From assembly GCA_017609285.1 (NCBI GenBank), contig JAFCEE010000002.1, positions 8,152 through 72,151 of the forward strand: DNA of 64,000 bases, in the 5' to 3' direction. The notes under the pieces were generated by a model. That model did no database searches, had not been told where the DNA came from, and saw only the letters and a list, made by a program, of their open reading frames with translations. This document shows positions 13,703-28,931 of this stretch, piece after piece. The DNA is from Candidatus Pacearchaeota archaeon (GTDB lineage Archaea; Nanobdellota; Nanobdellia; Pacearchaeales; GW2011-AR1). Every line of letters starts with the position of its first letter. The stretch's first letter is position 1. Position numbers and translations under genes: made by a program.

Positions 13703-14200
13703 CTAGCCAACCCACCCCAAAACCTCACTCACAACCTCCTCAGGAGTTTTGTTATTTGTGTTTATAATCCTACCTTCATTGAAAGAAGAAACTAATTTGA
13801 AAACATCTTTTACAGCTTTTTCTCCCAATTTATCCTTCCTGTTCTTGTCTCTTTTTATACACTCTTTTAAACTTGCTTTTAAAGTAAAAATAAAATGTTT
13901 AGATTTTAGATTTTTAATTAGATCATCAATCTGCTCTTTATGGTAGAAATTCCCTTCAATAACAAGGTTTCCTTTTTTCAGTTTTTCTTTTAATTTAGGA
14001 AGAATTATTTTGTCAGCTTTTAAAAACTTGTTTAAAGGAATCCATTTTTCTCCTGGAATGTAGTCCAGGCCTAAATTTTCCATAATTTTGTCAAAATGTA
14101 TTACCTCTGCTTTAATTTTCTTAGCTAAAATCTCGCTAATTGTTGATTTTCCTATTCCTGCAGGCCCTCTTATAATTATATATAATAACTCATGACTCAT
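13703..14200 (-). CDS. P-loop kinase-like ATPase (AAA_33/NMP-kinase-like)
   Basis: 165 aa with Walker A 'GPAGIGKST'. The size and layout match small nucleotide or other kinases. Confidence 0.6.
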   Translation of the reverse strand: MSHELLYIIIRGPAGIGKSTISEILAKKIKAEVIHFDKIMENLGLDYIPGEKWIPLNKFLKADKIILPKLKEKLKKGNLVIEGNFYHKEQIDDLIKNLKSKHFIFTLKASLKECIKRDKNRKDKLGEKAVKDVFKLVSSFNEGRIINTNNKTPEEVVSEVLGWVG

Positions 14201-14800
14201 TTAGAGAAGAGAAATATAAAAACTTAACCTTACTCATCGCTTTCAACATGTATAGGAGTAAAGTTTAAAAGAAAATAAAAGCAACAAATATCATGAATGA
14301 AGAAGCTGCTGAAATTTCAAATCAAAACCATAGCCCTTGCACAAAGGTAACCTTAATTAACAAAAAATAAAAGCAGAAAAATTTAAAACTATAAATTTAT
14401 AATGGTTTTTATTAAGGAAGTGAAAATAAGTTCTCAGAATGCCTGAAAACGCCTGATTTTGTGGGGTTCTTATAACGTATATTGTGCGAAGTTTTTATGT
14501 GTAAAAGAGAAAATTAAGTGTTTTGTTATGTTTCTAGGGGTTTTGAGCTGGTTTTTGAGCTTAATTGAACTAAAGTTAGCTTTGTACATGTTTTTAAAAT
14601 GTTAATTTTTGCTATAATTAAAAAGTTATAATCAGACCATAGTCTTATATAATTTAATAAATAGTTTTCTAATTTCATCTAGCTAGTTTTGTTTTTTAAT
14701 TTAAGTATGCCTCTATTGAATTTTTGTTGATTTTGTGCACTTTCCTTACCTTCGTGAAAATAATATGTTTTTGCTTTGTTAGTATATTAAATATAAGAAG

Positions 14801-15199: not shown

Positions 15200-15337
15200 A
15201 TAAATTTTAAGTTTAGGATATTTAAAAATATTTATGTGGTGGCTGTAAATCTTAATATTTGTTTTAATTTAATATTTTTGCATTAAGGTTAGCTTAGTTA
15301 AAAATTTTGATAAGAAAATTAATTTGGAATTAATTTT

Positions 15338-15413
15338 AGCTGTTTAAAGCTGTTTAAACAGCTGTTTATGTTGATTTTTATTATTTAAAGGGTGTTTAAG
15401 TAAATAAACACCC
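15338..15413. promoter_or_regulatory. Operator-like palindromes upstream of the 15499 HTH gene
   Basis: GCTGTTTA occurs 3 times (15339, 15349, 15361), including the perfect palindrome GCTGTTTAAACAGC at 15349..15362. A hairpin GGGTGTTTA-N6-TAAACACCC at 15390..15413 is followed by a T-run. Confidence 0.5.
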
Positions 15414-15498
15414 TTATTTTTAGCTAATTTTTTAGTAATTTTTTTCTTAATTTTTATTAAAAATTTAATAAAATGCATAGAATTTTGTCGTCGATATT

Positions 15499-16182
15499 TT
15501 GGAAAAAGAAAAAGTTTATAAATATACTTTCTTTGATTTTTTTATGGTTTGGTGGTTGTTTAGTAAAAGAAAAGAGGTTGAAGGGTTAAAAGAAGAAGTA
15601 AAAGAGAGTTTTGAGAAGGTTAAAAAAGATATTGAAGATGTTGGAAAGTGGCTTAAACACTTTAATGATAAGCATGAGGATCACCATTCTAGGTTTTCTG
15701 TAATTGAACAAAGATTATCGACGATAGAAAATGATTTGGAAGAATTAAAAAATTCCCTTTCTTTGATGGATGTTGGCGTTTATAAACAGCTGTTTAAAAC
15801 ACCCAAACAGGTGTTTAAAGAACAAACAGCTGTTGAAGGTGTTCAAACACCTGTTCAAACACCTGTTCAAACAGGTGAAAGTTCTAATTTTAATTTATCA
15901 AAATTTTCTGTTATGGAAAGAGCAATGATCTATGTTCTTTTGAACACTGATATGAAGTTAAGTTATGATGATATTGCTGCAATGATGGGAAAGTCCAGAA
16001 CAACAATTAGAGGGCAGATAAATAGCATAAAAAGGAAAAGTGAGGGTTTAATTGAAGAGCTAATAGAAAAAAATGGCAAAAAAAGGCTATATATTCCTGA
16101 TTATATAAAAGAAAAAATGCTTAAAAACGTAAAAGTGAGAGTTAGTAAAAAAAGAAAAAGCAAAAAAAACAGTGAAAAGTGA
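15499..16182 (+). CDS. Coiled-coil / short-repeat linker / C-terminal HTH protein (paralogue A)
   Basis: 227 aa. The N-terminal coiled coil is 'VKESFEKVKKDIEDV...'. The linker is 'VQTPVQTPVQT'. The C-terminal HTH is 'FSVMERAMIYVLLNTDMKLSYDDIAAMMGKSRTTIRGQINSIKRKSEGLI'. The track start is TTG, so the true start is uncertain (next ATG at 15544). Confidence 0.65.
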   Translation: MEKEKVYKYTFFDFFMVWWLFSKRKEVEGLKEEVKESFEKVKKDIEDVGKWLKHFNDKHEDHHSRFSVIEQRLSTIENDLEELKNSLSLMDVGVYKQLFKTPKQVFKEQTAVEGVQTPVQTPVQTGESSNFNLSKFSVMERAMIYVLLNTDMKLSYDDIAAMMGKSRTTIRGQINSIKRKSEGLIEELIEKNGKKRLYIPDYIKEKMLKNVKVRVSKKRKSKKNSEK

Positions 16183-16270
16183 GAAAAATTCATGTTCAGT
16201 GAGAGATACAGCTTAAAAAGGATTAAAAGTGAGTGATTTTGAAAAAGAAAAAAGGCTAGAAGTGAGAGAT
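16134..16270. repeat. Phased AGTGAG(A/T)GA(T) iteron-like array
   Basis: AGTGAG starts at 16134, 16178, 16198, 16228 and 16261. The three best copies are AGTGAGAGAT, AGTGAGTGAT and AGTGAGAGAT. Spacings are 44, 20, 30 and 33 nt, close to integral helical turns. The array spans the 3' end of the 15499 gene and the convergent intergenic region. Confidence 0.5.
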
Positions 16271-16402
16271 TAGGGTTAAAATAATACAAAAACAGAAATA
16301 CATAAAATTAAGGTTTTGAGAGCCTGAGAACATAAAAAATGTAGAATTAATAAATCTAGTTAGTAGTTTATTTAATAGTAAATCGTTACACCGAAGAGTA
16401 TT

Positions 16403-17164
16403 TTATATTTCTCTTAGCTTGATAATAGTGTCTAAAGAGGCTATTTTTTTTAAATCTGGTGAAATATGTAGCAAGATCTTTTTATTATTTATCTTTTCTT
16501 TTATTATAGGTATTCCTTTTTTTTGTATTTTGCCTATGTAGTCCCTAATTGATGATTCCGAGAGGTTTAATTTAGAAGAAAGTAGTGGGTAATCTACTAT
16601 CTCACCTTGTTGTTCAAGAGAGTAAAGTAGTGAGAAAACCTGCATTTCTTTTTCTGTAAGTCTTTTAAATTTAATCCGTATATCTTTTTTTAAAGCATCT
16701 AAGCTATCAAGAATTTCTCTAGCTTTGTCAAGATGGTTTTCTGTTGGTTTTTTTCCTATTTCTTGTGTTTTTATGTGTTGGAATATTTGTCTGTCTGTCT
16801 GTTGGTTTGTCTGTCTGTCTGTTGGAACCCCTTTATTTCCTGTGGAAATATCTAAATTTTGCCTTTTTAAAACCTGAGAAAGCAATTTATCTGTTGGAAT
16901 TTCGTTATGTGTTGGAATTATTTGTCTATTTGTTGGTTTTTCTTTTGGATGTGTTGGAACATGTGCCCGCATATTTTTGTATATTTTTTCTTGAATTTCT
17001 GGTTTTTTTAAGAATTTTAACCTTAAATCATCTATGAATCCAGAAATTAATTTGAGATCTGTTTTTATTTCTCTTATTTCCTGCTTTAAATCTTGTATTT
17101 CTTGGCCTAAAGAAAAAATATCTTGCTTGACTTTTTTAAAAGCATCTCTTATTTGTTCTTTCAT
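16403..17164 (-). CDS. Coiled-coil / PT-repeat linker / C-terminal HTH protein (paralogue B)
   Basis: 253 aa. N-terminal 'IRDAFKKVKQDIFSLGQEIQDLKQEI'. The linker has [IVK]PT[HDN] repeats. The C-terminal HTH is 'LTEKEMQVFSLLYSLEQQGEIVDYPLLSSKLNLSESSIRDYIGKIQKKGIPII'. The architecture matches 15499..16182. Confidence 0.65.
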   Translation of the reverse strand: MKEQIRDAFKKVKQDIFSLGQEIQDLKQEIREIKTDLKLISGFIDDLRLKFLKKPEIQEKIYKNMRAHVPTHPKEKPTNRQIIPTHNEIPTDKLLSQVLKRQNLDISTGNKGVPTDRQTNQQTDRQIFQHIKTQEIGKKPTENHLDKAREILDSLDALKKDIRIKFKRLTEKEMQVFSLLYSLEQQGEIVDYPLLSSKLNLSESSIRDYIGKIQKKGIPIIKEKINNKKILLHISPDLKKIASLDTIIKLREI

Positions 17165-17240: not shown

Positions 17241-17507
17241 TTAGAGTTGTTTGGTATAAGCTTCATAAGCTTTATTGCTTAATCTCCAGCGAATTCTTCT
17301 ACTATAAAATACGCCTTTTGGATTCTTTTTTATAGCAACAACAAGATTTTTTTCTTTTAGCTCGAACATCAAAGCCTTAATAAATTCCTCATCTCTTGCT
17401 ATCTCGCGAGCTATTTCGGCTGTGAATCTCGCTTTTGGAAATTCGTGATAAAGGAAAGAAAGGATTTGTTCTGCTATTTTATCTCTTTTTTCTTTACTTA
17501 GCTTCAT
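17241..17507 (-). CDS. Small winged-helix DNA-binding protein
   Basis: 88 aa. 'IAEQILSFLYHEFPKARFTAEIAREIARDEEFIKALMFELKEKNLVVAIKK' fits the wHTH pattern. It is the last gene of the ABC operon strand. Confidence 0.55.
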   Translation of the reverse strand: MKLSKEKRDKIAEQILSFLYHEFPKARFTAEIAREIARDEEFIKALMFELKEKNLVVAIKKNPKGVFYSRRIRWRLSNKAYEAYTKQL

Positions 17508-17596: not shown

Positions 17597-18316
17597 TTAT
17601 AATAAAACTCTTGAGGGTTTTTTCTTGAGTTTTTTATCACTAATAATTAAACCATCTTTTAGTTTTATAACTCTTGAGGCATATTTAAGATGCCATGATT
17701 CATGGGTTACCATAACTATTGTTTGCCCAAATTTTTTATTGAGAGTTTTTAAAACATCTAAAACTTGTTTAGAAGTCCTTGTATCAAGATTTGCGCATGG
17801 TTCATCTGCAAATAATATTTTTGGTTTTTTAGCTATTGCTCTTGCAATAGCAACTCTTTGTTTTTCTCCACCGGAGAGTTGATTTGGGACTCTTTCGGAT
17901 TTATCTTTAAGGCCTACTTTTTCTAAAGCCTGTTTAGCTGTTATTATAGATTCTTTTTTAGATCTGCCTTCCATAAGCGAGAGAATATAAACATTCTCTA
18001 TAGCATTCATTTCATTAATTAATGCATAATCTTGAAATACGTATCCGAGTTGTGTTAATCTATAATATGTTCTTTCTTCTTCTGGCAAATCAATTACATT
18101 GAGATTATTGATTGTGTATTCTCCATCAGTGGGTTTGTCAATTAAGCCGAGTATTCTAAGAAGTGTAGTTTTGCCACTTCCACTTGGACCTATAATTGCA
18201 ATAAACTCTCCTTTTTTTATGTCAAAACTAACCCCATTTAGAGCTTTTACTATAACTTCCCCTGTTTTATAATGCCTTACTAAATTCTTAATTTTAATCA
18301 TAGGTTTTTCATCCAT
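17597..18316 (-). CDS. ABC transporter ATP-binding protein (MacB/LolD type)
   Basis: Walker A 'GPSGSGKTT', signature 'LSGGEKQRVAIARA', Walker B 'ILFADEP', H-loop 'VTHE'. I place the start at ATG 18316 (MDEKPMIKIKNL), 2 nt after the permease stop. The track's TTG start at 18367 looks spurious. Confidence 0.9.
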   Translation of the reverse strand: MDEKPMIKIKNLVRHYKTGEVIVKALNGVSFDIKKGEFIAIIGPSGSGKTTLLRILGLIDKPTDGEYTINNLNVIDLPEEERTYYRLTQLGYVFQDYALINEMNAIENVYILSLMEGRSKKESIITAKQALEKVGLKDKSERVPNQLSGGEKQRVAIARAIAKKPKILFADEPCANLDTRTSKQVLDVLKTLNKKFGQTIVMVTHESWHLKYASRVIKLKDGLIISDKKLKKKPSRVLL

Positions 18317-18318
18317 TT

Positions 18319-19530
18319 TTATTCTCCCCAAATTGCCTCCAAAATGTCTTGTCTTGTCACAAGCCAAGCAGGGATAAATCCTGCAATGACTGCCATTATT
18401 ATCATCATTAAAGCACCTTGAAGTAAATTAGGAATATTAATTTCTGGTGCGATTTTCATTGTTTCATAAAATGTTATTGGATGTGATTTTAAATAGAAAG
18501 TTAGTGAAATAAACATAGCTAATCCTAAAAGAATTCCAAGACAGATGTAAAATAAACTAATAAAAATATATGAAATTTTAATAGAGTTAGGGGTTATCCC
18601 AGTTGCTTTTAAAATTCCAATTTCTCTTTTTCTGTGTAAAGTGTTAATGTAAATTATAATAAAAATTAATGCTGCGCCAACAATTAAACTTACTATCCTT
18701 GACATTGTTCCCAATGCACCTATACTCTGTAAAGCTTGTCGTAATAGAGATTCAGCTTTTTCCTGCCAAGTAAAAACCTTTTCTTTAATTCCTATTTCAA
18801 TAATTTTTTCTTTAATCTCTGCTTCTTTTCCTGGTTCTTTTATTTTTATTATTATTGATGAAGCTTTTCCTTCAGCTTCTTCACCTAATACAGATTCAAG
18901 TTCTTTATAATGAACTATTGCATTCAGATCTGTCAATTCCCATGTTCCTTCATGAATGCCTTTTACTTTGTATGTTTTTTGGATTCCATTAGGATAAGTT
19001 ACATTAATCAAAGAACCTACCTTAATTTCACCTAAATTGTCATAAATTTCTGAACCAGTATAGCCTTCTACTAACATAGCTCCTATCATAATTTCGTCTC
19101 TTGAGAGTTCGCCTAAAAATTCCCCTTCACTTACAATATAAGGATATTTAGAAACAAATTCTTCTTCAGATGGAACAAGTCCGAGAACATTTGCTCCAAC
19201 AATTTTCTGTTTATGGCGTAGAGATGCCCCAACTTCTAATCTTTTTGCTGCACCTATAACACCGTTGATATTTCTGGTTTTCTGCAAAACATTGTCTGCA
19301 TTATTAATATAGGTGTTGTCTTCTGCTGGCTCAATAACAATATTTCCATAAGCATAATCTTGAACAAACCCAACAAAAAGACTCATCATTCCATTTATTA
19401 AAGCTGGCAGGAATACAAGATTCATAAAAATCAAAGCTAAAACAATAACTATAAAAAGAGATGTTTTTTTGTTTCCTCTTTTTATAGAACTTATTGCGAT
19501 AACAGAACCAACTTTAATGTCATTAAGCAT
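18319..19530 (-). CDS. ABC transporter permease, FtsX/MacB family
   Basis: 403 aa. It has an N-terminal TM, a large extracytoplasmic domain, and a C-terminal FtsX bundle with 'REIGILKATGITPNSI'. Confidence 0.85.
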   Translation of the reverse strand: MLNDIKVGSVIAISSIKRGNKKTSLFIVIVLALIFMNLVFLPALINGMMSLFVGFVQDYAYGNIVIEPAEDNTYINNADNVLQKTRNINGVIGAAKRLEVGASLRHKQKIVGANVLGLVPSEEEFVSKYPYIVSEGEFLGELSRDEIMIGAMLVEGYTGSEIYDNLGEIKVGSLINVTYPNGIQKTYKVKGIHEGTWELTDLNAIVHYKELESVLGEEAEGKASSIIIKIKEPGKEAEIKEKIIEIGIKEKVFTWQEKAESLLRQALQSIGALGTMSRIVSLIVGAALIFIIIYINTLHRKREIGILKATGITPNSIKISYIFISLFYICLGILLGLAMFISLTFYLKSHPITFYETMKIAPEINIPNLLQGALMMIIMAVIAGFIPAWLVTRQDILEAIWGE

Positions 19531-19622
19531 TTTTGCCTCTTTTTATATTTGATGAAATGAGAATTTATAAGGTTTTGTAAATGTTCTTTAAAATTGAGAT
19601 AACATTAAGAGAGATTATTTTT

Positions 19623-20234
19623 CTAATTTTGTGTCCCTAATTTTTTATATTCTAAATAAGAGTATAAAACTAGCCATATCGACAATACAAAAATAGGAAT
19701 TAAAATAAACAAAAGAAAGTATTCTGGAGAAAAGAATATCCCAAAAAAGAGAATTACTCCTGTAAATTTAAAAAGAAGTGATCCTAAATGGTGGGTTTTT
19801 TTCCAAACTTTATCACTACTTAAAGTCCAGGGGGTCCTAATCCCTATGAACCAGTTTCTTTTTAGTTTTTTCATAATAATACCAATACAAAAGAACAATA
19901 TTCCTATTGCAGGCATTAGCATTGTGTTTATATTAAGTTTATATTTAAAATTAGATAAAATTATTAAAATAAATATGTAAAATAGAAATAAGATTAGAAT
20001 TAGTATAAGTAAGTTGGGGTCTATTTTTGGGATAAGTAAAAAAATTAAATATACTCCTAAGGATATTAAGGGGATTAAAAATATGCCCCAAAACTTTGGC
20101 ATATAACCATCAACTTGCCCTTTAATATTCCAGTGAGATATAATCTTGTCTTCTTTAATATTATAATAAGAGTATATTCCAATTATAAAAGACAAGAGAA
20201 TTATTAAAATAATTGCGAAAGTTATTTTTTTCAT
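19623..20234 (-). CDS. SdpI/DUF1648-family membrane protein
   Basis: 203 aa. 'IISHWNIKGQVDGYMPKFWGIFLIP' (DUF1648-like) and 'NWFIGIRTPWTLSSDKVWKKTHHLG' (SdpI-family motif). Confidence 0.7.
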   Translation of the reverse strand: MKKITFAIILIILLSFIIGIYSYYNIKEDKIISHWNIKGQVDGYMPKFWGIFLIPLISLGVYLIFLLIPKIDPNLLILILILFLFYIFILIILSNFKYKLNINTMLMPAIGILFFCIGIIMKKLKRNWFIGIRTPWTLSSDKVWKKTHHLGSLLFKFTGVILFFGIFFSPEYFLLFILIPIFVLSIWLVLYSYLEYKKLGTQN

Positions 20235-20271
20235 TTCAAAAATCCAGATTGTTTTATTAAGTATATTTTTC

Positions 20272-21168
20272 TTAAGATTTTTTCTTTTTTTCTATTAAAT
20301 TGTTTCCTTTAAGTAATTGATGTATTATTTTATCTTTTGTTCTTTTTGTTTTAATGGAGTAATATATTCCTAAACTGAAAATTATGATTATTAGTATTAT
20401 AAGGAGAATTGCCAAAATATTAGATTTTTTCTTTAATATGTTTAGAGTTATATGTTTTTTAAATTCGTGTTCTCCAAAATCATCTTTGTATGAGATTGTA
20501 ACTGGAATTTCAAATTCTCCTTCTTTATCTACAATGAAAGTTAAAATAGCTGGACTGTCTTCATTTGGTTCAAGCGCTCCAATAAAAGACTGTTTTAATC
20601 CTTGGAATGGATGGTCTAAATATATTTCTGTTGATTTTGCAGTGCCGTCTCCGGTATTCTCTATTCTTATAACTAATTCAACTGTATCCCCTTTTCTTGG
20701 AATTATAGGGTCTGTTTTAAGGGAAGCTAAACCTATTTCTGCTTTATTCCCTATAATATCAAAAGTGATGTTATAATTTTTTATAATTGAAATTTCATTA
20801 TCTCCATAAGACAATCTTGTTTTGATTAAATGTATTCCTGGTTTGGTGTTTTCTGTAGTTCTCATATGATAGGTAATAAATCTTTCACTATTCCCATAAT
20901 ATAAGTTAGATATGTTGATAATTAAAGGCTCTTTAATCTGAATATCAACTGGCGGATTAATTAATTCAAAAGAAACAAATTCTGGCATCTTGCTTCCACA
21001 ATTTTCAATTTGTATACCAATTGTAAATTCCTCGTTGATTCCAATTGAACTTGGGCTGATATCTGAAATTTCTGCTGTTACGCAATATCCTTTACTTGAT
21101 GCATAAACATCAGGCATAAAAGTCAAAAAAGTTGCAAAAATAAATAAAAACAAAATTTTATTTTTCAT
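20272..21168 (-). CDS. Secreted, C-terminally anchored protein with two CARDB/COG1361-like beta-sandwich repeats
   Basis: 298 aa. Signal peptide 'MKNKILFLFIFATFLTFMPDVYA'. Repeat cores 'FTIGIQIENCGSKMPEFVSFEL' and 'VELVIRIENTGDGTAKSTEIYL'. C-terminal TM 'ILAILLIILIIIIFSLGIYY'. Confidence 0.6.
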   Translation of the reverse strand: MKNKILFLFIFATFLTFMPDVYASSKGYCVTAEISDISPSSIGINEEFTIGIQIENCGSKMPEFVSFELINPPVDIQIKEPLIINISNLYYGNSERFITYHMRTTENTKPGIHLIKTRLSYGDNEISIIKNYNITFDIIGNKAEIGLASLKTDPIIPRKGDTVELVIRIENTGDGTAKSTEIYLDHPFQGLKQSFIGALEPNEDSPAILTFIVDKEGEFEIPVTISYKDDFGEHEFKKHITLNILKKKSNILAILLIILIIIIFSLGIYYSIKTKRTKDKIIHQLLKGNNLIEKKKKS

Positions 21169-21311
21169 TTTCCTCTTTTTTCTGTTTATTTAAATAGAAT
21201 ATCTTATTTAAAGCTTGTGTTAAATTTTAAGTTAAAAAGTTTAATTGTTAAATTAGGATATAGAGAAAAAATTAAATATTTAAAAAGCTTGAAAAAAGAG
21301 GGATTTCTAAG

Positions 21312-23924
21312 ATGCCGGTAAAGTTGGAGATAGCTAAGTTAAGGAAAAGTAAAGAAGTAAAGGAAATGCTACATCCTTTAGTTAGGGAGTGGTTCTTTAG
21401 TAAGTTTAAAGAGTTTAGTTTGCCCCAGTTATATGGAGTAATGCCGATTTGGGAAAGAAAAAATATCTTGATTTCTGCTCCTACTGGAGGAACTAAAACT
21501 TTAACTGCTTTTCTTTCTATTTTAAATTATCTTGTAAGTTTGTCTGCTAAAGAAGAATTAGAAGATAAGATTTATGCTGTTTATTGTTCTCCTTTAAGGG
21601 CTTTGTCTAATGATATTTATGTAAATTTAGTTGAGCCTTTATCTGAGATTGAAAAAATAGCTAAAAGGAAAGGAGTTAAGTTGCAAAAAATAAGAGTTAG
21701 CTTAAGAACAGGAGATACTTCAACAGCTGAAAGACAGAAAATGTTAAAGTCTTGCCCGCATATTTTAGTAACTACTCCTGAGACGCTGGCTATAATCCTG
21801 AATGCAAAGAAATTTTCAGAGAAGTTAGGGGCGGTAGAGTTTGTTATAGTTGATGAGATTCATGCTCTTGCCAATAAAAGAGGTGTTCATCTAAGTTTAA
21901 GTTTAGAAAGATTAGAAGAAATGTCAATTATCAAGCCAGTAAGAATTGGTTTGTCTGCTACTATTGCTCCACTTGAAGAAATTGCAAAATTTTTAGTTGG
22001 TATTGGAAATGATGAAAAAAGAAAATGCTTAACAGCTGATGTTGAGTTTGAGAAAAAAATAGATGTTAAGGTTTTAACTCCTGTTTCTGATTTAATTGAT
22101 ACTACGGGATTAGAGATACATTCTTCTCTTTATAAATTAATTGATAAACTTATTCAGGAACATAAAACAACTTTAATTTTTACTAATACAAGGTCAGCTA
22201 CAGAAAGAGTGATACATCATTTAAAAGAGATGTTTCCTAAAAAGTATTTAGAAGAAATTGGGGCTCATCATTCTTCTCTTTCAAGGGAGTATAGGTTTAA
22301 TATTGAAGAGAGATTAAGAAAAGGAAAATTAAAGGTAGTTGTCACATCAACTTCTTTGGAACTCGGCATAGATATAGGTTATATTGGCTTAGTTATTTTA
22401 TTAGGCTCGCCAAAATCAACTGCCAGGGCATTGCAAAGAATAGGCAGGGCAGGGCATAAACTTCATGATGTGGCAGAAGGAAGATTTATAGTTTTAGATA
22501 GGGATGATTTAGTTGAATGTAGTGTTATGAAAAAAGAGATTGTCGAAAGGAAAATAGATAAAATACAAATTCCTAAAAATTGTTTAGATGTTTTGTCTCA
22601 GCAAATTTATGGTATGGCTATATACAAAATTTGGAATATTAAGGATATGTATGGATTGATTAAGAAAAGTTATTGTTATTCTTCTCTTTCTTATGAAGAT
22701 TTTTTGTCTGTGATTTCTTATTTAAGTGGGGAGTATGCTTTAGAACATAAGAATGTTTATGGTAAGATTTGGTATGATCCGGAAACAAAAATGATAGGTA
22801 AGAAAGGAAAATTAGCTAGAGTTATATATATGACTAATATTGGAACTATTCCAGATGAGTCTTATGTCAGTGTTGTTATCGCAAAAGGAGAAAGGAGAAA
22901 AGGAGAAAAAGTTGGTGTTATAGATGAGGCTTTTCTTGAAAGATTAAAGCCAGGAGATGTTTTTGTTTTAGGTGGCCAAAAATATGAGTTTCTTTACACG
23001 AGGGGGATGAAAGCTTATGTAAATAGTAGTGTTTATAGACCTCCTACAATACCTTCATGGTTTTCTGAAATGTTGCCTTTAAGCTTTGATCTTGCTTTAG
23101 AGATAAGTAGGTTTAGAGGTTTAATTGAGGAGAAATTGAAAAATAAAAAATCTCGACGGGAAATAGAGGGGTTTATAAAAAAATTTTGTTATGTTGATGA
23201 TAAGGTGGCAGAAAAAATTTTTTCGTATCTACAATTACAAGAAAAATACTTGGGTTTGCCTTCTAATAAAAAGATTATAGTGGAAAATTATAAATCTGAT
23301 AAGGACTATTTTATTTTCCATGCTCTTTTTGGGAGAAAAGTAAATGATGCGTTATCGCGGGGAATAGCTTATTTGTTGGGGCAGGTTGGAGGAAGAGATA
23401 TTGAAATCGGAATAAATGATAATGGTTTTTATGTTTGTGGGGAGAAAATTTCCGGGAATAGGATAAAGAAGGTTTTGAATTTTTTAAATTCTGGGAATTT
23501 AAGAGAGGTTTTAGAAGAAGCTATTGAAAGAACCGAGTTATTTAATAGAAGATTTAGACATAATGCTGTTAGAAGTTTAATGATTTTAAGAACCTATAAG
23601 GGTAGAAGAAAAAGTGCGGGAAAACAACAATTAAGAAGTGGGTTTGTTTTGGGGGCTGTAAGAAAAATAAGCAGGGAGTTTCCTATTTTGAAAGAGACAA
23701 GGAGGGAAATTTTAGAAGATGTTATGGATTTGAGCAATGCAAAAAAGGTTTTAGATTGGTTACAAGAAGGAAAAATTAAAGTTGAGTTTAAAAAAACTTC
23801 TCTGCCCTCACCTTTTTCTTTAAACTTAATTATGCAAGGTCGGGCAGATTTAATTAAAATTGAAGACAAAATTGAATTTTTGAAGAGGATTTATAAACTT
23901 ATTCAAAAACAGATAAATAAGTAA
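21312..23924 (+). CDS. lhr: Lhr-type ATP-dependent DNA helicase (SF2, DExH)
   Basis: 870 aa. 'APTGGTKTLTAF', 'VDEIHAL', 'SAT', 'KGKLKVVVTSTSLELGIDIG' and 'QRIGRAGH', plus a long Lhr-type C-terminal domain. Confidence 0.85.
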   Translation: MPVKLEIAKLRKSKEVKEMLHPLVREWFFSKFKEFSLPQLYGVMPIWERKNILISAPTGGTKTLTAFLSILNYLVSLSAKEELEDKIYAVYCSPLRALSNDIYVNLVEPLSEIEKIAKRKGVKLQKIRVSLRTGDTSTAERQKMLKSCPHILVTTPETLAIILNAKKFSEKLGAVEFVIVDEIHALANKRGVHLSLSLERLEEMSIIKPVRIGLSATIAPLEEIAKFLVGIGNDEKRKCLTADVEFEKKIDVKVLTPVSDLIDTTGLEIHSSLYKLIDKLIQEHKTTLIFTNTRSATERVIHHLKEMFPKKYLEEIGAHHSSLSREYRFNIEERLRKGKLKVVVTSTSLELGIDIGYIGLVILLGSPKSTARALQRIGRAGHKLHDVAEGRFIVLDRDDLVECSVMKKEIVERKIDKIQIPKNCLDVLSQQIYGMAIYKIWNIKDMYGLIKKSYCYSSLSYEDFLSVISYLSGEYALEHKNVYGKIWYDPETKMIGKKGKLARVIYMTNIGTIPDESYVSVVIAKGERRKGEKVGVIDEAFLERLKPGDVFVLGGQKYEFLYTRGMKAYVNSSVYRPPTIPSWFSEMLPLSFDLALEISRFRGLIEEKLKNKKSRREIEGFIKKFCYVDDKVAEKIFSYLQLQEKYLGLPSNKKIIVENYKSDKDYFIFHALFGRKVNDALSRGIAYLLGQVGGRDIEIGINDNGFYVCGEKISGNRIKKVLNFLNSGNLREVLEEAIERTELFNRRFRHNAVRSLMILRTYKGRRKSAGKQQLRSGFVLGAVRKISREFPILKETRREILEDVMDLSNAKKVLDWLQEGKIKVEFKKTSLPSPFSLNLIMQGRADLIKIEDKIEFLKRIYKLIQKQINK

Positions 23925-23950
23925 AGAAAGAGCTATACAGAAAATAGAAA

Positions 23951-24688
23951 ATGAGATTTATAGACAAAGCTGTTTGGTTGGAAAAAGAAAAAATTTTAGT
24001 TTTAGCAGATTTGCATTTAGGGTTTGAAGAAAGTTTAATTGAGCAAGGAATTCTTTTACCTCGAACCCAGTATAAAAAAATTGTGAGGGATTTAAAGAAT
24101 ATATTTAAGGAAGTTAAAAAATCAAACATTGAAGTTAAGGAAGTTGTTATTCTGGGTGATTTAAAACATGAATTTGGTTCTGTTAGCAAACAAGAATGGA
24201 AAGAAACCCTTAATTTATTGAATTTTTTGTCTAAGAAAATTGAAAAAGGAAAAATAGTTTTAGTTAAAGGAAATCATGACACTATTTTAGAACCTATTGC
24301 TAAGAAAAAAGGTTTGGAAGTTAAAGATTTTTATATTAAAGATAATTTAGCTTTTTTACATGGACATAAATTTTTTCCTGAAATTTTAGATAAGAAAATT
24401 AAGAAAATATTTTTAGGGCATATTCATCCCGCTATTTCTATTAGGGAGTGTGTAAAAAGCGAGATATATAAGTGTTTTTTAGTTGGTAAATGGAAAGGTA
24501 AGGAAGTTGTGATTTTGCCGAGTTTTTTTCCTCTTATTGAGGGGGTTGATGTTTTAATTGAAGGAACTAATTTAGCTTCTGAATTAAAATTAAAGTTGAA
24601 AAATTTTGAGGTTTATGTGCCAGTTTCTGTTGATGAGGTTTTAGATTTTGGTAAGGTTGGGGCGAACAAGTTAGCGAGACTGATTTGA
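23951..24688 (+). CDS. Metallophosphoesterase (Lhr-associated MPE type)
   Basis: 245 aa. 'VLADLHLG', 'ILGDLKHE', 'KGNHD', 'LHGH' and 'GHIHP'. Confidence 0.8.
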   Translation: MRFIDKAVWLEKEKILVLADLHLGFEESLIEQGILLPRTQYKKIVRDLKNIFKEVKKSNIEVKEVVILGDLKHEFGSVSKQEWKETLNLLNFLSKKIEKGKIVLVKGNHDTILEPIAKKKGLEVKDFYIKDNLAFLHGHKFFPEILDKKIKKIFLGHIHPAISIRECVKSEIYKCFLVGKWKGKEVVILPSFFPLIEGVDVLIEGTNLASELKLKLKNFEVYVPVSVDEVLDFGKVGANKLARLI

Positions 24689-24712
24689 TTTATTATCTAC
24701 GAGCTAACTTGT
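24666..24712. terminator. 10-bp-stem inverted repeat between convergent genes
   Basis: ACAAGTTAGC (24666..24675) pairs with GCTAACTTGT (24703..24712) across a 27-nt loop that spans the MPE stop codon. Its function is uncertain. Confidence 0.25.
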
Positions 24713-24733
24713 GAGGGGGATTGGTAAGTTGGT

Positions 24734-25810
24734 TTAAATCCTCCACTTTCCATTTTTCTGTATAATTTTGTTATCAAGAATGATAGAAGCATGAGACATA
24801 TCTTTTACAATATCCCAGTGTATTGAGGAGTCGTTTCCTCCTCCGTTTTCTTTATAAGCCATTCCAAGAGCGAGATGTATTGTACCATTTATTTTTTCAT
24901 CAAACAAAAGATTTTTAGTGAATTTTTTTATATTTGGATTACAGCCTATTCCAAATTCTCCTACATATTTCGCATTATAATCTGTCTCTAAAACTGCTTT
25001 AAGCAAATCTTTATTTTTACTTGCATTATATTTTACTACCTTACCATCTTTAAATTTAAGAAAAATATCAGTAACTTCTTTTCCGTTATATAAGGCAGGG
25101 TAATCAAACTTGATGAAGCCATTTAAACTTTCTCTGACTGGAGCCATGAAAATTTCTCCACCAGGCATGTTTTCTTTTCCATCATCTACTACACTATTTT
25201 TTCCTTCTATTGAAAATTTTAAATCTACTCCTTCTCCTTTAAGATAAACTTGCTCGCCTTTCTCAAAAACTTTATTAATTTTTTTTAGTTTCTTACCAAA
25301 TTTTTTCCAGTTTATAAGACAAGAGGAATAAACAAAATTTTCCCATTCTGTTAATGACATCTCGGCTTCTATTGCGTGAGCAAGGCATGGATAAGCTATT
25401 GTTACTCTTCTAATCTTCTGTTTTTCATTTACTATATAGTCTGAAATTGGTCTCATTACTTTTTGTCTTATTGTTAATTTTTTGGGATTAGAAGAAGTTA
25501 AGTCGCGAGTGTTTTCATCTGTATATACTCCAATATAAGCTTGTGCCTGTTTTATTGTAGAAAACCAGTATTGTGGAAAAAATTTTAGTTGATGGTCTTT
25601 GGCATATTTATAAAAAAACTGGTTTATATGGGGAAGAGAAACTTTTACAATGGGATAGGCTCCTCTCAATATGATTTCTTTGTATAATTCAGTTAAGAAA
25701 GGTAGGGCTTCTGCGCCACCAGAAATAATTACTTTTTCTTTTGGCTTTACAGCTACACTATACTGAACTGCTATTTTTGCCAGTTCTCTTGTTCTCAAGT
25801 CTAAAGGCAT
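24734..25810 (-). CDS. Aminopeptidase, M29 (AmpS/PepS/aminopeptidase T) family
   Basis: 358 aa. Overall similarity to M29 enzymes, for example 'PGGEIFMAP', 'GEFGIGCNP' and 'GTIHLALG'. Confidence 0.7.
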   Translation of the reverse strand: MPLDLRTRELAKIAVQYSVAVKPKEKVIISGGAEALPFLTELYKEIILRGAYPIVKVSLPHINQFFYKYAKDHQLKFFPQYWFSTIKQAQAYIGVYTDENTRDLTSSNPKKLTIRQKVMRPISDYIVNEKQKIRRVTIAYPCLAHAIEAEMSLTEWENFVYSSCLINWKKFGKKLKKINKVFEKGEQVYLKGEGVDLKFSIEGKNSVVDDGKENMPGGEIFMAPVRESLNGFIKFDYPALYNGKEVTDIFLKFKDGKVVKYNASKNKDLLKAVLETDYNAKYVGEFGIGCNPNIKKFTKNLLFDEKINGTIHLALGMAYKENGGGNDSSIHWDIVKDMSHASIILDNKIIQKNGKWRI

Positions 25811-25822
25811 TTTAATTTGTTT

Positions 25823-26158
25823 TTATTTTTTTAATTGAAATTCTTGTAAAGCTTTCAAAGCTTCTTGGTATTCTTTTTGAGCAGTTTCTATTGCCTGTCT
25901 AGCATTATAGGATGGTTTTGAAAGTAAAATGTTTTGAGCCTCTTCTTGGATATAATCAAGATGTTTTCTAGCTCTTCTTATTTCTTGTTTTAAATGATAT
26001 TCTTCATTAAATTTTTCCTTTAATTTTCTACACCCATAATAGATGAGGAGAAAGGGACTAACTAATAAAGTTGCCCCTGTTACTAAACACCCAATCCCTA
26101 ATAAACCTGCATCAGTCAATTTATCTTCTAATTTGTTATGATTATTTTTCATTTTCAC
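25823..26158 (-). CDS. Hypothetical TM + coiled-coil protein
   Basis: 111 aa with one TM helix followed by a helical tail. Confidence 0.45.
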   Translation of the reverse strand: MKMKNNHNKLEDKLTDAGLLGIGCLVTGATLLVSPFLLIYYGCRKLKEKFNEEYHLKQEIRRARKHLDYIQEEAQNILLSKPSYNARQAIETAQKEYQEALKALQEFQLKK

Positions 26159-26230
26159 ACTCAGAATTCTAAGGCGATTCTGTTGCCATCACCCTAATTT
26201 TGTCTGTGTTCTTAAGTATAAAAACTTAAC

Positions 26231-26324
26231 GCCAGCGCTAGGATTCGAACCTAGAAGCCCTTGTGGGCGCGGTTATCTCTTTCAAGATTCGAGACCGCTC
26301 CATTAACCATTCTGGCACGCTGGC
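26231..26324 (-). tRNA. tRNA-Ser (anticodon CGA) with a 13-nt intron after position 37
   Basis: Reverse complement, with the anticodon in brackets: GCCAGCG-TG-CCA-GAATGGTTAA-TGG-A-GCGGT-CT[CGA]A-(TCTTGAAAGAGAT)-A-ACCGC-GCCCACAAGGGC-TT-CTAGG-TTCGAAT-CCTAG-CGCTGGC. It has a 7-bp acceptor stem, a 3-bp D stem, a 5-bp anticodon stem, a long variable arm (type II) and a T-loop TTCGAAT. The intron is at 26275..26287. No CCA is encoded. Confidence 0.85.
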
Positions 26325-26355
26325 TTAAATAAATAAGAAATATAGAAATATAAAT

Positions 26356-26799: not shown

Positions 26800-27057
26800 T
26801 TAAACTAAATCTTCTTCGCTGACCACAACAAAATCTCCAACTGCGATTATAGCTGAGTAGGGTAAAAGAACTTCTTTTTCTTTTGTTATTTCTAAGTTTA
26901 AATTTTTAATATAAGGTGTTGGATCTTTTACTACTAACTGTATTAATTCGCCAACACGGGTTTCAAAAGTTATATCTTTTACTATTCCCAACCTTTTCCC
27001 TTCTTTTGTTACCACTAGTTTACCTATAATTTCGCTGAAGGGTTTTTTTTCAATCAT
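26800..27057 (-). CDS. PRC-barrel domain protein
   Basis: 85 aa. 'GKLVVTKEGKRLGIVKDITFETRVGELIQLVV...LLPYSAIIAVGDFVVV' fits the PRC-barrel pattern. Confidence 0.7.
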   Translation of the reverse strand: MIEKKPFSEIIGKLVVTKEGKRLGIVKDITFETRVGELIQLVVKDPTPYIKNLNLEITKEKEVLLPYSAIIAVGDFVVVSEEDLV

Positions 27058-27224
27058 GTCAGATGGAAATAGAAAATCTTTATAAACTTTTCTGTTAATG
27101 AAAAGTTGTTTTTAAGTAATATTGTTAAAAAAATATGTCTTTATTAGGGAATTTTTAATTTTTTTGAATTTGTTTTTAATTAAATAGAAAGCAAAGATTT
27201 TCCTAAATAAAATTGTTTAAATAA

Positions 27225-27250
27225 CCCCACCCCTTTAGTTCATTTGGAAA
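27225..27250 (-). promoter_or_regulatory. ORB-like origin recognition box 1
   Basis: The reverse complement TTTCCAAATGAACTAAAGGGGTGGGG contains a TTTCCA..TGAA core plus a G-string, as in archaeal ORB elements (TTCCA-N-TGGAAA...GGGG). Confidence 0.6.
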
Positions 27251-27278
27251 TTAAAAAAAAAGATTTAAAAAGGAATTA

Positions 27279-27308
27279 TTTTTATTTTTATTTTTATTTT
27301 TATTTTTA
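27279..27308. repeat. (TTTTTA)x5 tandem repeat
   Basis: Five perfect hexamer units were read directly from the sequence. Confidence 0.9.
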
Positions 27309-27317
27309 AAGATTTAT

Positions 27318-27345
27318 ATATTATATTATATATATTATATTATAT
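27318..27345. repeat. ATATTATATTATAT x2 tandem, with a third exact copy at 27437..27450
   Basis: Read directly from the sequence. The repeat lies inside a stretch of roughly 230 bp with almost no G/C. Confidence 0.85.
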
Positions 27346-27484
27346 ATAATAATTATAATTATTATATATAATGATTTTAAAATTGATTTAATATGTTATG
27401 CTGATTATATTATACATTATATATAACAAAAAATATATATTATATTATATGTGATATGAGATATATTTCTTACTATATAATTTA

Positions 27485-27498
27485 TTTCCATAAGAAAT
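27485..27498 (+). promoter_or_regulatory. mini-ORB-like box (no G-string)
   Basis: TTTCCATAAGAAAT shares the TTTCCA-NN-(T/A)GAA core with the two flanking boxes. Confidence 0.35.
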
Positions 27499-27580
27499 CT
27501 AGTATATACTTTTGATTATTTTTCATTCTAAAGTTATACTAACTTAAAATTTACCGATGATAAATTTTTTTCTTTTTTAG

Positions 27581-27603
27581 TTTCCACTTGAAATTAGGGT
27601 GTG
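27581..27603 (+). promoter_or_regulatory. ORB-like origin recognition box 2
   Basis: TTTCCACTTGAAATTAGGGTGTG has the same core plus a G-rich tail. It is in inverted orientation relative to box 1. Confidence 0.6.
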
Positions 27604-27690
27604 ACCTATATTTTACAAAACATAAAAATTTATAAAAAAGAAAAATGTGAAAATTCTACATATAATAAAAATTTAAAATAAAGAGGTAAA

Positions 27691-28896
27691 ATGCCTGTTC
27701 AAATTGATAAAATTTTTGATTCTTTTTCAAAAAATGTTCTATTTGAAAACAAATTTGTTTTACAGACATCATATACTCCTGAGAATATACCTCATAGAGA
27801 CAAACAAATAGAGCAAGTAGCAAGTATTTTAGCTCCAGCTTTGAGGGGAGAAAGGAGTAGCAATCTATTTATTTATGGTCAAACTGGGACAGGAAAGACA
27901 TTAAGTTGTCAGTATGTAAGAAATGAGATGTTAAAAAGAGCTAAAAAAAATTCCCTCCCATTAAGAATAGAGTATTTAAATTGTAAATTAAAAAAAGTTG
28001 CAGATACCGAGTATAGGATTTTAGCTGAATTAATAAAGAAGTTAGGTGGTAATGTGCCCGCTACAGGTTTGCCAACAGATCAGGTTTATAATAAGTTTGT
28101 GGATATTGTTGAAGAAGAAAAGAAATTAATTATTTTAGTTTTAGATGAAATAGACCAGGCAGTAAAAAAAATTTCTGATGGTTTTCTTTATAATTTAACA
28201 AGATTGAATTCTGAACTCTCACAGACACAAATAAGTTTAATAGGTATAAGTAATGACTTAAAATTTTTAGATAATTTAGATCCTAGGGTTAAGAGTAGTT
28301 TGAGTGAGGAAGAAGTAGTCTTTCCACCTTACAATGCTATACAATTACAAGAAATCTTAAAAGAAAGAGCAGAAAAAGCCTTTAGGAAAGGTATTTTGGA
28401 AGAGGGTGTTATTGCTAAATGCGCAGCATTTGCTGCTAGAGAACATGGTGATGCTAGAAGGGCATTAGATTTATTAAGAATTTCAGGGGAGTTAGCTGAA
28501 AGGTTAGGGAACAAGAAAGTAAAAATAGAGCATGTAGATTTGGCAAATAACAAAATAGATAACGATAAAGTTATTGAAGTAGTTGAGAACGCCCCAAAAC
28601 AATTCCAATTAACTCTACTTGCAATAATTAATCTAACAGAAAATAAAAAAGTTGAGAAAATCTATACAGGCGATGTTTATAATATTTATCACGATTTATG
28701 TTTAAGATATAAGACAGAAACTTTAACTCAGAGAAGAATTTCAGATATTATAGCTGAGATGGATATGTTGGGTTTAATAAATGCTAGGGTTATAAGTAAA
28801 GGAAGACATGGCAGGACTAGGGAAATAAAACTTTCAATACCACAAAAAACATTGGGTAAGACAAAAAAGATTTTACACGAATATTTAGGAGTATAA
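27691..28896 (+). CDS. cdc6: Orc1/Cdc6 replication initiator
   Basis: 401 aa. 'PHRDKQIEQV', Walker A 'GQTGTGKT', Walker B 'ILVLDEID', 'GDARRALDLLR' and a C-terminal winged helix. Confidence 0.95.
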   Translation: MPVQIDKIFDSFSKNVLFENKFVLQTSYTPENIPHRDKQIEQVASILAPALRGERSSNLFIYGQTGTGKTLSCQYVRNEMLKRAKKNSLPLRIEYLNCKLKKVADTEYRILAELIKKLGGNVPATGLPTDQVYNKFVDIVEEEKKLIILVLDEIDQAVKKISDGFLYNLTRLNSELSQTQISLIGISNDLKFLDNLDPRVKSSLSEEEVVFPPYNAIQLQEILKERAEKAFRKGILEEGVIAKCAAFAAREHGDARRALDLLRISGELAERLGNKKVKIEHVDLANNKIDNDKVIEVVENAPKQFQLTLLAIINLTENKKVEKIYTGDVYNIYHDLCLRYKTETLTQRRISDIIAEMDMLGLINARVISKGRHGRTREIKLSIPQKTLGKTKKILHEYLGV

Positions 28897-28931
28897 GTTA
28901 TTTGGCTTATATTAGAAAATTCAATTTCAAA

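Follow-up and report, generated by a model that had tools for sequence, protein, structure and literature searches.

The window analysed here is a stretch of 64,000 nucleotides (nt) from contig JAFCEE010000002.1 of a Candidatus Pacearchaeota archaeon, an AT-rich (29% GC) segment of a DPANN archaeal chromosome whose proteins find their best matches in metagenome-assembled genomes of Pacearchaeota, Woesearchaeota or Nanoarchaeota. It carries two convergent genes, referred to as genes A and B, for proteins with a coiled coil, a linker and a winged helix-turn-helix (HTH) domain. The linker codons of both genes are composed of short DNA motifs; those of gene A recur upstream of its promoter, and those of gene B include an element resembling the origin recognition boxes (ORBs) of archaeal replication origins. 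This coding DNA may double as arrays of protein-binding sites. The two genes, the promoter of gene A and the recognition helices are:

15544..16182, plus strand: gene A, 212 amino acids (aa), with a coiled coil, a disordered linker, a winged HTH (120-195) and a basic tail
16403..17164, minus strand: gene B, 253 aa, paralogue of A, with a coiled coil (2-63), a linker, and a helix plus winged HTH (144-252)
15511..15524, plus strand: putative archaeal B recognition element (BRE)/TATA box of gene A, AAAGTTTATAAATA, kept in position and sequence in relatives
Recognition helices: GKSRATIRGQINSIK in A and LSESSIRDYIGKI in B

More than 2,500 homologues of gene A and more than 2,100 of gene B were found, some of them on contigs of several hundred kb. 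The relationship between A and B is weak in BLASTP (E = 7e-4) and clear in profile-profile alignment with hhalign (probability 94.6%, E = 6.9e-8, 164 columns), and by these alignments the two are true paralogues, homologous across their full length. AlphaFold predicts one architecture for both, in which a long helix at the N-terminus (residues 2-82 of A, 2-63 of B) is followed by a disordered linker (80-114 of A, 58-143 of B) and by a winged helix at the C-terminus. The predicted local distance difference test score is below 50 for residues 80-114 of A and most of residues 58-138 of B, which predicts disorder in both linkers. In Foldseek, the solved folds most similar to the C-terminal domain of A are those of MarR, MepR, AbfR2 and Lrs14-type proteins (3eco, 6cmv and 2d1h; E ~2e-4). 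No Pfam MarR match was above threshold for these proteins; the sole Pfam result for the fold is HTH_11 (PF08279), near its curated cut-off of 25 bits (22.6 bits for A, 21.8 bits for B) and matched at E <=0.01 by 22 of 28 gene A and 30 of 34 gene B homologues, several of which carry a precomputed PF08279 match. Sequence searches for relatives of solved structure returned coiled-coil noise only, and a literature search on these protein families in Pacearchaeota found nothing relevant.

The ATG at 15544, downstream of the BRE/TATA-like AAAGTTTATAAATA, is the most likely start of gene A, rather than the TTG at 15499. Its distance of 20 nt from the BRE/TATA box suggests, given archaeal promoter architecture, that the gene A messenger RNA (mRNA) is leaderless. 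In an alignment of 28 sequences, the N-terminus (15544-15561, residues 1-6) has the near-invariant form M-F-x-W-L-F followed by basic residues, with M1, W4 and F6 invariant; this MFxWLF motif, which gene B does not have, may be an amphipathic membrane-anchoring or partner-binding helix.

Two clusters of related sites flank the promoter of gene A:

15338..15413, no strand assigned: upstream cluster of SSTGTTTA half-sites, with three direct copies of GCTGTTTA, the palindrome GCTGTTTAAACAGC and an everted pair GGGTGTTTA-N6-TAAACACCC, 130-205 nt before the gene A start codon
15782..15877, plus strand: intragenic array of gene A, with six AAACA-SS-TG(TT) sites on the 12-nt unit GTTCAAACASST, encoding KQLFKTPKQVFKEQTAVEGVQTPVQTPVQTG
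Motif strings of the array family: AAACASSTGTTT, and TTCCAACAG for gene B-type units

In the upstream cluster, GCTGTTTA starts at 15339, 15349 and 15361 on the plus strand and at 15355 on the minus strand; the palindrome occupies 15349-15362 and the everted pair, GGGTGTTTA-AGTAAA-TAAACACCC, 15390-15413. Within gene A, positions 15782-15877 read ATAAACAGCTGTTTAAAACACCCAAACAGGTGTTTAAAGAACAAACAGCTGTTGAAGGTGTTCAAACACCTGTTCAAACACCTGTTCAAACAGGTG and encode YKQLFKTPKQVFKEQTAVEGVQTPVQTPVQTG, and an exact 17-nt inverted match joins 15353-15369 with 15782-15798. AAACASSTGTT has 9 matches in the 64 kb, all of them in 15356-15867, where 0.16 were expected, and none of 100 shuffled sequences reached 9. GCTGTTTA has 10 matches against 2.5 expected, and SSTGTTTA 20 against 7.5, with nine of the 20 in the A/B locus; the 20-mer around the palindrome has no copy in the window beyond this locus.

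The comparison with relatives was based mainly on the best 80 of 391 stretches encoding a gene A relative in a collection of one genome per species. In these 80 loci the density of AAACANNTGTT is 6.5/kb in gene A and 6.3/kb in the 400 nt upstream, as compared with 0.157/kb elsewhere. Nearly every species has SSTGTTTA half-sites, mostly 5-12, between -230 and -100 of gene A, arranged partly as direct repeats at ~10-bp spacing and partly as inverted repeats. The coding and the upstream copies share one spectrum of centre dinucleotides (GC > GG > CC, CG never). When the exact palindrome 20-mer was searched against 241 million metagenome records, about 109 matches were obtained, 62 of them within a gene A homologue or in the sequence before it, and 8 others no more than 5.5 kb from one; the other matches are partly chance occurrences in unrelated DNA and partly lie in DPANN genes (xerA-like, serine-recombinase, and a gene with the signal peptide CLNSCLNS).

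The palindrome TTTAAACAGCTGTTTAAA was also observed within other genes of relatives, again as K-Q-L-F-K codons, in xerA-like tyrosine recombinase and serine recombinase genes. It lies inside the xerA-like gene at about nt 512 in four loci (L118, L130, L175 and L125), upstream of that gene in three (L014, L029 and L165), and at the 3' ends of recombinase genes in five (L042, L056, L078, L069 and L073). In relatives, a xerA-like gene is often encountered 1-2.4 kb before gene A; its counterpart in the window (820-1674, minus strand) has no such site. A regulon linking the gene A motif to xerA was considered and rejected as too inconsistent, sites being in or near the xerA-like gene in only 8 of 26 loci.

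In the alignment of 28-80 homologues (50-80% identity), the best-conserved segment of protein A is the near-invariant KQTAVxGVQTxVQTxVQT, which corresponds to the array. Two reading frames of the motif are used in the window, giving KQLF/KQVF and QTAV/QTPV (AAA-CAG-CTG-TTT reads KQLF, and C-AAA-CAG-CTG-TT reads QTAV), and the frame shifts in some homologues. At the variable residue of VQT-x-VQT (Ala, Pro or Gly) the codon is almost always SST, that is, the palindrome centre varies and the T at the third position is fixed. The SST codon, the reading in two frames and the common centre spectrum point to a target at the DNA level in gene A.

The array segments are the most conserved parts of both genes, and the codon alignments are almost without synonymous change there. 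In the array of gene A as compared with the rest of the gene, Thr is encoded by ACA in 95% vs 48%, Ala by GCT in 91% vs 38%, Gly by GGT in 80% vs 30%, Leu by CTG in 64% vs 6% and Val by GTA in 0% vs 30% of cases. In the invariant block of gene B, TCC accounts for 100% (14% gene-wide), GGG for 99% (30%), GAC for 99% (39%) and CAG for 97% (36%). Codon identity, defined as the probability that two homologues share the codon at conserved degenerate columns, is 0.87 in the array and 0.57 in the winged helix of A, and 0.96 in the ORB block and 0.47 in the C-terminal part of B; the invariant residues of the winged helix show ordinary synonymous variation. The arrays are therefore under purifying selection at the nucleotide level beyond the needs of the peptide, and are very probably functional nucleic-acid elements. 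An overlapping gene in another frame or on the other strand was rejected as their cause: no conserved alternative-frame open reading frame (ORF) covers the arrays, and no other frame or strand is open in all species (minimum 4-22 codons).

The linker of gene B has the following elements:

16742..16957, minus strand: eight CCAACA (Pro-Thr) units, consensus WTCCAACASA, on the gene B coding strand
16787..16825, minus strand: (ACAG)n tetranucleotide tracts, encoding TDRQTNQQTDRQ
16822..16851, minus strand: ORB-like element ATATTTCCACAGGAAATAAAGGGGTTCCAA, with a TTCCA-N3-GGAAA dyad and a G-string, encoding ISTGNKGVP of gene B in essentially invariant codons

The eight copies of TGTTGG, the reverse complement of CCAACA, start at 16742, 16776, 16800, 16820, 16892, 16910, 16931 and 16952. 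The gene B unit GTTCCAACAG is a one-base variant of the gene A unit GTTCAAACAG; GTTCAAACAG occurs in gene A only and GTTCCAACAG in gene B only, each on its own coding strand, and hhalign aligns the two arrays with each other. From these alignments we infer that an ancestral array diverged along with the duplicated proteins, and the idea that each protein recognises the array of its own gene draws mainly, and indirectly, on this joint divergence. At the CCAACA and (ACAG)n columns, Pro is encoded by CCA in 85-92% and Thr by ACA in 98-100%, the values for gene B overall being 44% and 66%. Among homologues of gene B the number of CCAACA copies ranges from 0 to 13, the perfect (ACAG)n runs from 0 to 9 and the protein length from 209 to 387 aa; the stretch S[TI]GNxGV[PS]TDRQT..QTD is near-invariant, and the ORB block is invariant despite the variable repeat counts. 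CCAACA and ACAG were also considered as mini-ORBs and rejected, as they occur at 0.07/kb in oriC spacers vs 0.53/kb in the background. Across the 80 species, perfect (ACAG)n runs reach 7 units in 15 species, and in the window only 3 units; in the case of long in-frame tetranucleotide tracts, slippage and frameshift could switch gene B by phase variation.

The initial annotation had described the palindrome, the half-sites and the eight TGTTGG copies, and all of these statements hold on the window, as does its view of A and B as paralogues built of coiled coil, linker and HTH. One of its two readings takes the embedded motifs for functional sites akin to the upstream palindromes, with which the enrichment over shuffled sequence, the synonymous fixation in 80 species, the use of two frames and the single site grammar agree; the homologues keep both the arrays and the upstream half-site clusters. 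Its alternative, that the linkers evolve by repeat expansion, fits parts of gene B and not gene A, in which three [VI]Q[TS] (VQT) units are present in 67 of the 80 homologues and the protein length stays within 199-235 aa.

The ORB-like element connects gene B with a replication origin that could be predicted elsewhere in the window:

27049..27690, no strand assigned: predicted oriC, between the PRC-barrel gene and orc1/cdc6
27224-27253, minus strand: oriC ORB
27254-27481: oriC unwinding region, 228 nt, 7.9% GC
27482-27511, plus strand: weak oriC ORB
27578-27607, plus strand: stronger oriC ORB
26803-27048: PRC-barrel gene
27691-28896: orc1/cdc6 (Cdc6_C and Cdc6_lid both above threshold); the PolD genes DP1 and DP2 come next (27691-33966 in all), an order also found in Thermococcales

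TTCC and GAA are the core motifs of archaeal ORBs (PMC1904270) and recur in the oriC ORBs of this clade, and the element at 16822-16851 has both the TTCC/GAA dyad core and a G-string at the matching spacing. In relatives, the spacer between the PRC-barrel gene and orc1 has the classical layout of an inverted ORB, an AT-rich unwinding region and two ORBs just before orc1, and its motif TTTCCAYAGGAAAT-N3-6-G(T)GGGG equals the invariant TCC-AYA-GGA-AAT-NNN-GGG-GTT of gene B. The window was left out of the training set of a 30-nt weight matrix, which comprised 49 oriC ORBs from the PRC-orc1 spacers of 24 relatives. The top match of the matrix in the 64 kb is 16822-16851 with 30.5 bits, close to the training median of 31.1, followed by the ORBs of the window's own oriC (23.4 and 20.4 bits); the maximum in shuffled sequence was 15.0. 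In relatives, matches of at least 16 bits are limited to the coding strand of gene B (74 of 78 loci), the oriC regions and 3 sites upstream of gene A. The gene B element lies inside the gene and has the polarity of the ORB on the same origin arm; its distance from oriC is 1.5-2 kb in relatives and 10.4 kb in the window. On these grounds the block is probably a genuine ORB of the Orc1 type. Both this full ORB-like element and the origin proximity of the cluster had been overlooked in the initial annotation.

The matrix found no match in the dp1 gene of the window, and the gene A motif had no match in 13.9 kb of oriC spacers. The peptide ISTGNRGV in the Lhr helicase (23150-23173) was considered as another ORB and rejected as chance, its 12.9 bits being under the shuffle maximum. 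A replication origin at 15-17 kb was likewise rejected: the GC skew tracks gene orientation and shows no switch, the gene A motif is missing from oriC spacers, and oriC lies at 27.0-27.7 kb.

Gene B is convergent to gene A in all 80 loci, and the cluster has a third member:

17241..17507, minus strand: gene for a small winged-helix-like protein of 88 aa, next to gene B in 75 of the 80 loci, with sub-threshold Pfam winged-helix matches

No relationship of the 88-aa protein to A or B was detectable. Beyond its gene follow those of a 141-aa protein and a PRC-barrel protein, each in about 50 of the 80 loci (PRC-barrel in 54, mostly in that order), and then an AT-rich spacer and orc1/cdc6, seen in all 25 loci in which the 3-kb flank is long enough. 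The A/B cluster of relatives is located 1.5-2 kb from oriC/orc1. In the window the distance is ~10 kb, with the 141-aa/PRC-barrel/orc1 module at 26.4-28.9 kb: relative to most related genomes, ~9 kb (17597-26350) has been inserted between the 88-aa gene and the oriC module, containing ABC transporter genes and genes for a CARDB protein, an Lhr helicase, a phosphoesterase and an M29 peptidase as well as an intron-containing transfer RNA (tRNA). The P-loop kinase gene at 13703-14200, on the other side, is not conserved among the relatives. Contigs that carry a relative of gene A are up to 857 kb long, and no relative was found among the 2.9 million viral contigs of IMG/VR or the plasmids of PLSDB. 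Judged by this gene order and distribution, the A/B/88-aa cluster is chromosomal, origin-proximal and not mobile.

Taken together, these data lead us to favour, with moderate confidence, the reading that the linker-coding DNA doubles as arrays of protein-binding sites, in A as the operator or iteron array of its own gene and in B as an Orc1/Cdc6 site accompanied by a variant array. Whether A itself is the protein that binds the SSTGTTTA sites is evenly balanced. If so, A would bind, as a coiled-coil dimer or oligomer, to the half-site clusters flanking its own promoter at about -170 and +280, and would bridge them by looping or form a roadblock, resulting in negative autoregulation and in a large, unique nucleoprotein landmark beside the origin. 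B would do likewise on its variant units. Binding of Orc1/Cdc6 to the ORB in gene B would couple the expression of B, or the chromosomal neighbourhood, to the replication initiator; alternatively, this ORB may serve Orc1 as an outlying site, comparable to the cluster in the dp1 gene of Thermococcales. The conserved repeat peptides would then for the most part be carried along with the DNA sites and tolerated on account of their location in a disordered linker, and are probably by-products of regulatory or origin-linked DNA sites. Autoregulation or partition-like sites, as offered in the initial annotation, lead among the mechanistic readings, the binding itself being predicted from sequence.

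Several observations weigh against the proposal. The upstream cluster lies 70-200 nt before the TATA box, which is far for the operator of a simple repressor. The protein that binds SSTGTTTA may be any of the three winged-helix proteins or another factor. Since the gene A motif is found at lower density elsewhere in relatives, for example in xerA-like and serine-recombinase genes, the binding factor may have other targets. Since CCAACA and ACAG are missing from oriC spacers and vary in number, the model is least constrained where it concerns their role. The distance of ~10 kb between the cluster and oriC in the window indicates that tight physical linkage to the origin is not essential. Finally, single sequences of the gene A array fold with a median z-score of -5.2 (-34 kcal/mol in the window), and the motif AAAGTGAG, described below, is strictly strand-specific, which leaves room for some function at the RNA level.

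In plain autoregulation without a link to replication, A and B would be ordinary repressors with the arrays as no more than their operators, the gene B block would be an operator of B (or of A) that merely resembles an ORB, and the proximity to the origin would be a historical accident. The MarR/Lrs14-type winged-helix fold, the half-site clusters on both sides of the gene A promoter, the restriction of every AAACASSTGTT site in the window to this locus and the 10 kb that separate the cluster from oriC here all agree with such an arrangement. It is nevertheless unlikely, since a matrix trained without gene B scores its block near the median of true oriC ORBs and otherwise detects only oriC and the three sites upstream of A, since the G-string and its spacing match and not the dyad alone, and since the order A/B/88-aa/141-aa/PRC-barrel/oriC/orc1 recurs among relatives.

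A centromere-like or iteron-type module for chromosome maintenance, in which A and B nucleate on the arrays and segregation, organisation or replication control is the main role, would explain the conserved origin-proximal location, the use of one half-site as ~10-bp direct repeats and as inverted repeats, and a site cluster that is essentially unique in 64 kb; the invariant MFxWLF could serve as a membrane or partner anchor. There are also weak matches to ParB-type HTH models and, in gene B homologues, to HTH_36, DnaD_N and RPA_C. However, the ParB- and Rep-like matches are all under curated cut-offs (HTH_ParB 20.2 bits against 22.6; TIGR00180 18.3 against 58.45), no gene for a ParA/SegA-type ATPase was found in the conserved cluster of the 80 loci, no ParB N-terminal (ParB/Srx, cytidine triphosphate (CTP)-binding) domain was found, the N-terminus being a coiled coil, and the oriC spacers are free of the gene A motif. 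Such a module is doubtful as the main role, and the tools used here do not set it apart from autoregulation. It is similarly doubtful that A and B form a ParA-less chromosome-landmark system, loading, possibly in cis and co-translationally, on linker-codon arrays beside oriC, one of which holds an Orc1/Cdc6 box. If this were true, origin recognition, A/B expression and the organisation or segregation of the origin region would be physically coupled, and the linker peptides would be a pure by-product.

That the arrays act as RNA, with an mRNA, antisense or embedded small RNA that must fold or be recognised (for example in translational control or in binding between RNA and protein), appears improbable. 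The folding energy of the gene A array and the strand specificity of AAAGTGAG speak for it, and the sole Rfam matches at 14.0-17.6 kb are to generic microRNA-hairpin precursor models (E ~0.3). Against these, the consensus fold of the alignment (alifold) amounts to only -1.1 kcal/mol with about zero covariation, which led us to reject a conserved RNA structure; the motif is also kept upstream of the TATA box, outside the gene A mRNA; the centre dinucleotides of the repeats are not complementary in many species, some having GG throughout; and the gene B block equals the ORB of oriC spacers, which are not transcribed. A known RNA family was rejected too, since at gathering threshold Rfam reported only the intron-containing tRNA elsewhere, and the matches of the permissive scan of 14.0-17.6 kb are meaningless.

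Conservation of the peptides only, with VQTPVQT and PTDRQTDRQ as short linear motifs or contingency repeats and the codon uniformity incidental, is very improbable. The peptides are indeed near-invariant, the CCAACA and (ACAG)n counts and the linker length of gene B vary among species, and (ACAG)n gives the same cyclic peptide in all three frames. However, invariant residues of the winged helix vary synonymously and those of the arrays do not, the rare codons CAG, CTG, GTG, TCC, GGG and GAC are fixed, the motif is found in more than one frame and also outside coding DNA, the copy number in gene A is fixed, and no alternative-frame ORF is conserved.

The remnant or regulatory hub of a mobile element suggested in the initial annotation can be dismissed: 14.2-17.5 kb is indeed coding-poor (50-63% coding), and some relatives have recombinase genes only a few kb away, but the family occurs in 391 stretches from one genome per species, its synteny is constant, relatives are missing from the viral and plasmid collections, the G+C content is like that of the surroundings, and patchy distribution, integrase or transposase linkage, virus or plasmid presence and atypical composition were not seen.

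Several known systems share parts of this arrangement. In Thermococcales, a cluster of ORBs and mini-ORBs lies within dp1, the gene for the small subunit of PolD beside oriC, and its binding by Cdc6/Orc1, both in vivo and in vitro, is documented for Pyrococcus (Matsunaga et al. 2007, PMC1904270). Like the gene B element, these boxes have the TTCC...GAA core and a G-rich tail inside a protein-coding gene, lie a few kb from oriC/orc1 and are kept across a whole order. In contrast, the gene B element, at which Orc1 binding is predicted, is a single full ORB in the codons of a disordered linker, flanked by unrelated CCAACA and ACAG arrays, and its host gene, on the other side of oriC, encodes an uncharacterised coiled-coil/winged-helix protein. 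Lin and Grossman reportedly located, in 1998, the parS centromere site of Bacillus subtilis inside spo0J/parB, near the origin. There, as proposed for gene A, a palindromic site for an HTH protein is found in the protein's own coding sequence in an origin-proximal gene, and it nucleates a larger complex, as the sites of gene A may do; the likeness of the AAACA-SS-TGTTT sites in and before gene A to clustered centromere sites is one of analogy only. Unlike Spo0J, A and B have no ParB N-terminal (CTPase) domain and no ParA partner, their similarity to the ParB HTH is sub-threshold, and a six-site array plus an upstream half-site cluster takes the place of one 16-bp site.

Rep proteins of iteron plasmids, such as RepA of pPS10 with its leucine zipper and winged helices, use one half-site both in the direct repeats of the iterons and in the inverted repeat of the operator. 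A would resemble RepA in the combination of an N-terminal zipper or coiled coil with a winged helix, in a half-site present as phased direct and inverted repeats at its own promoter, and in the proposed autoregulation. However, A is chromosomal, conserved and non-mobile, has a single winged-helix domain and has its sites partly in coding sequence; its motif is missing from oriC, and no evidence ties the sites to unwinding or initiation. In Haloarcula hispanica, an ORB cluster downstream of oriC2 was proposed to titrate Cdc6 in the manner of E. coli datA (Wu et al. 2014, as summarised in PMC4010727). This cluster and the gene B candidate would both place an Orc1/Cdc6 element beyond the core origin where it could modulate initiation; the candidate differs in being one ORB, within a gene and proposed from the sequence alone. 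The DNA-binding fold at the C-terminus is shared with the MarR, Lrs14 and AbfR regulators, which are dimeric, bind palindromes and are often autoregulatory. Unlike these, A and B would dimerise through a long N-terminal coiled coil set off by a disordered linker of 35-85 residues, have no Pfam MarR match at threshold and carry operator arrays within the gene.

The components are therefore precedented, as ORBs in dp1, as parS in spo0J and as a Rep half-site serving in iterons and operator. The combination, that is, origin-proximal paralogous winged-helix proteins whose linker codons are dictated by arrays, one of them an ORB, across DPANN archaea, appears to be undescribed. It would be an unusually clean natural case of dual-coding DNA, in which a near-invariant linker motif is better explained by the embedded DNA sites than by the peptide, and is a warning to motif hunters working on tiny genomes. 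For Pacearchaeota-type DPANN archaea, which cannot be grown or manipulated, it offers for the first time concrete candidates, open to testing, for cis elements and factors associated with the origin, namely a defined oriC (ORB, unwinding region and two ORBs beside orc1-dp1-dp2), an outlying ORB in a regulator gene, and two uncharacterised protein families, each of more than 2,000 members, with predicted binding sites. If Orc1 does bind in gene B, the initiator would be linked to a conserved pair of DNA-binding proteins, and the observation on Thermococcales dp1 would be extended to a very distant lineage.

Further conserved elements were found around and within gene A:

15277..15300, no strand assigned: inverted-repeat element GCATTAAGGTTAGCTTAGTTA (family consensus GCACTWAGGTTANCTWAGTTA), directly upstream of the half-site cluster, recurring before gene A in many relatives
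15487..15496, plus strand: GTCGTCGATA motif, ~15 nt before the gene A BRE/TATA box, related to the palindrome TATCGACGATA within gene A
15716..15726, no strand assigned: palindrome TATCGACGATA in gene A, codons 58-61, with Ser as TCG in 92% of homologues vs 12% of gene A Ser
16035..16268, plus strand: purine motif AAAGTGAGRG / AGTGAG, six strand-specific copies

TCGNCGATA is found in gene A at 44 loci and upstream of it at 25, and hardly anywhere outside these two places. TATCGTTG, likewise related to the palindrome TATCGACGATA, was observed between ORB2 and ORB3 in the oriC of several relatives. Of the copies of the purine motif, two fall within the 3' coding region of gene A, where they are read in different frames as KSEG and KVRV, and the others are located at the stop codon and between genes A and B. 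Among relatives, AAAGTGAG has 250 matches in the 3' part of gene A and the A-B spacer, every one on the gene A strand; the AAAGTGAGRG motif could represent sites of a third protein, an element of the 3' untranslated region, or a termination signal for the convergent gene B. Abutting the stop codon of gene B, at 16385-16402, is a conserved TTATTCGGT/GTTA-N-CCGA-like element (CGTTACACCGAAGAGTATTTTA in the window), which may be a 3'-end signal of gene B; ACCGAATA and CCGAATAA occur in 33-37 of 79 A-B spacers.

Two minor features lie farther from the genes. In the coding-poor stretch, a conserved non-coding element of ~45 nt, GGTTCTTATAACGTATATTGTGCGAAGTTTTTATGTGTAAAAG, occupies 14466-14512; at least 13 related loci have its core TTGTGCGAAGTTTTTAYGTGTAAAA at a distance of ~1 kb before gene A. 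The element has no Rfam match and may be the promoter or the start of an unannotated small RNA. The tRNA near the oriC module (26230-26324, minus strand, 95 nt) scores 44 bits with the Rfam tRNA model and was missed by ARAGORN, as fits an archaeal tRNA with an intron.

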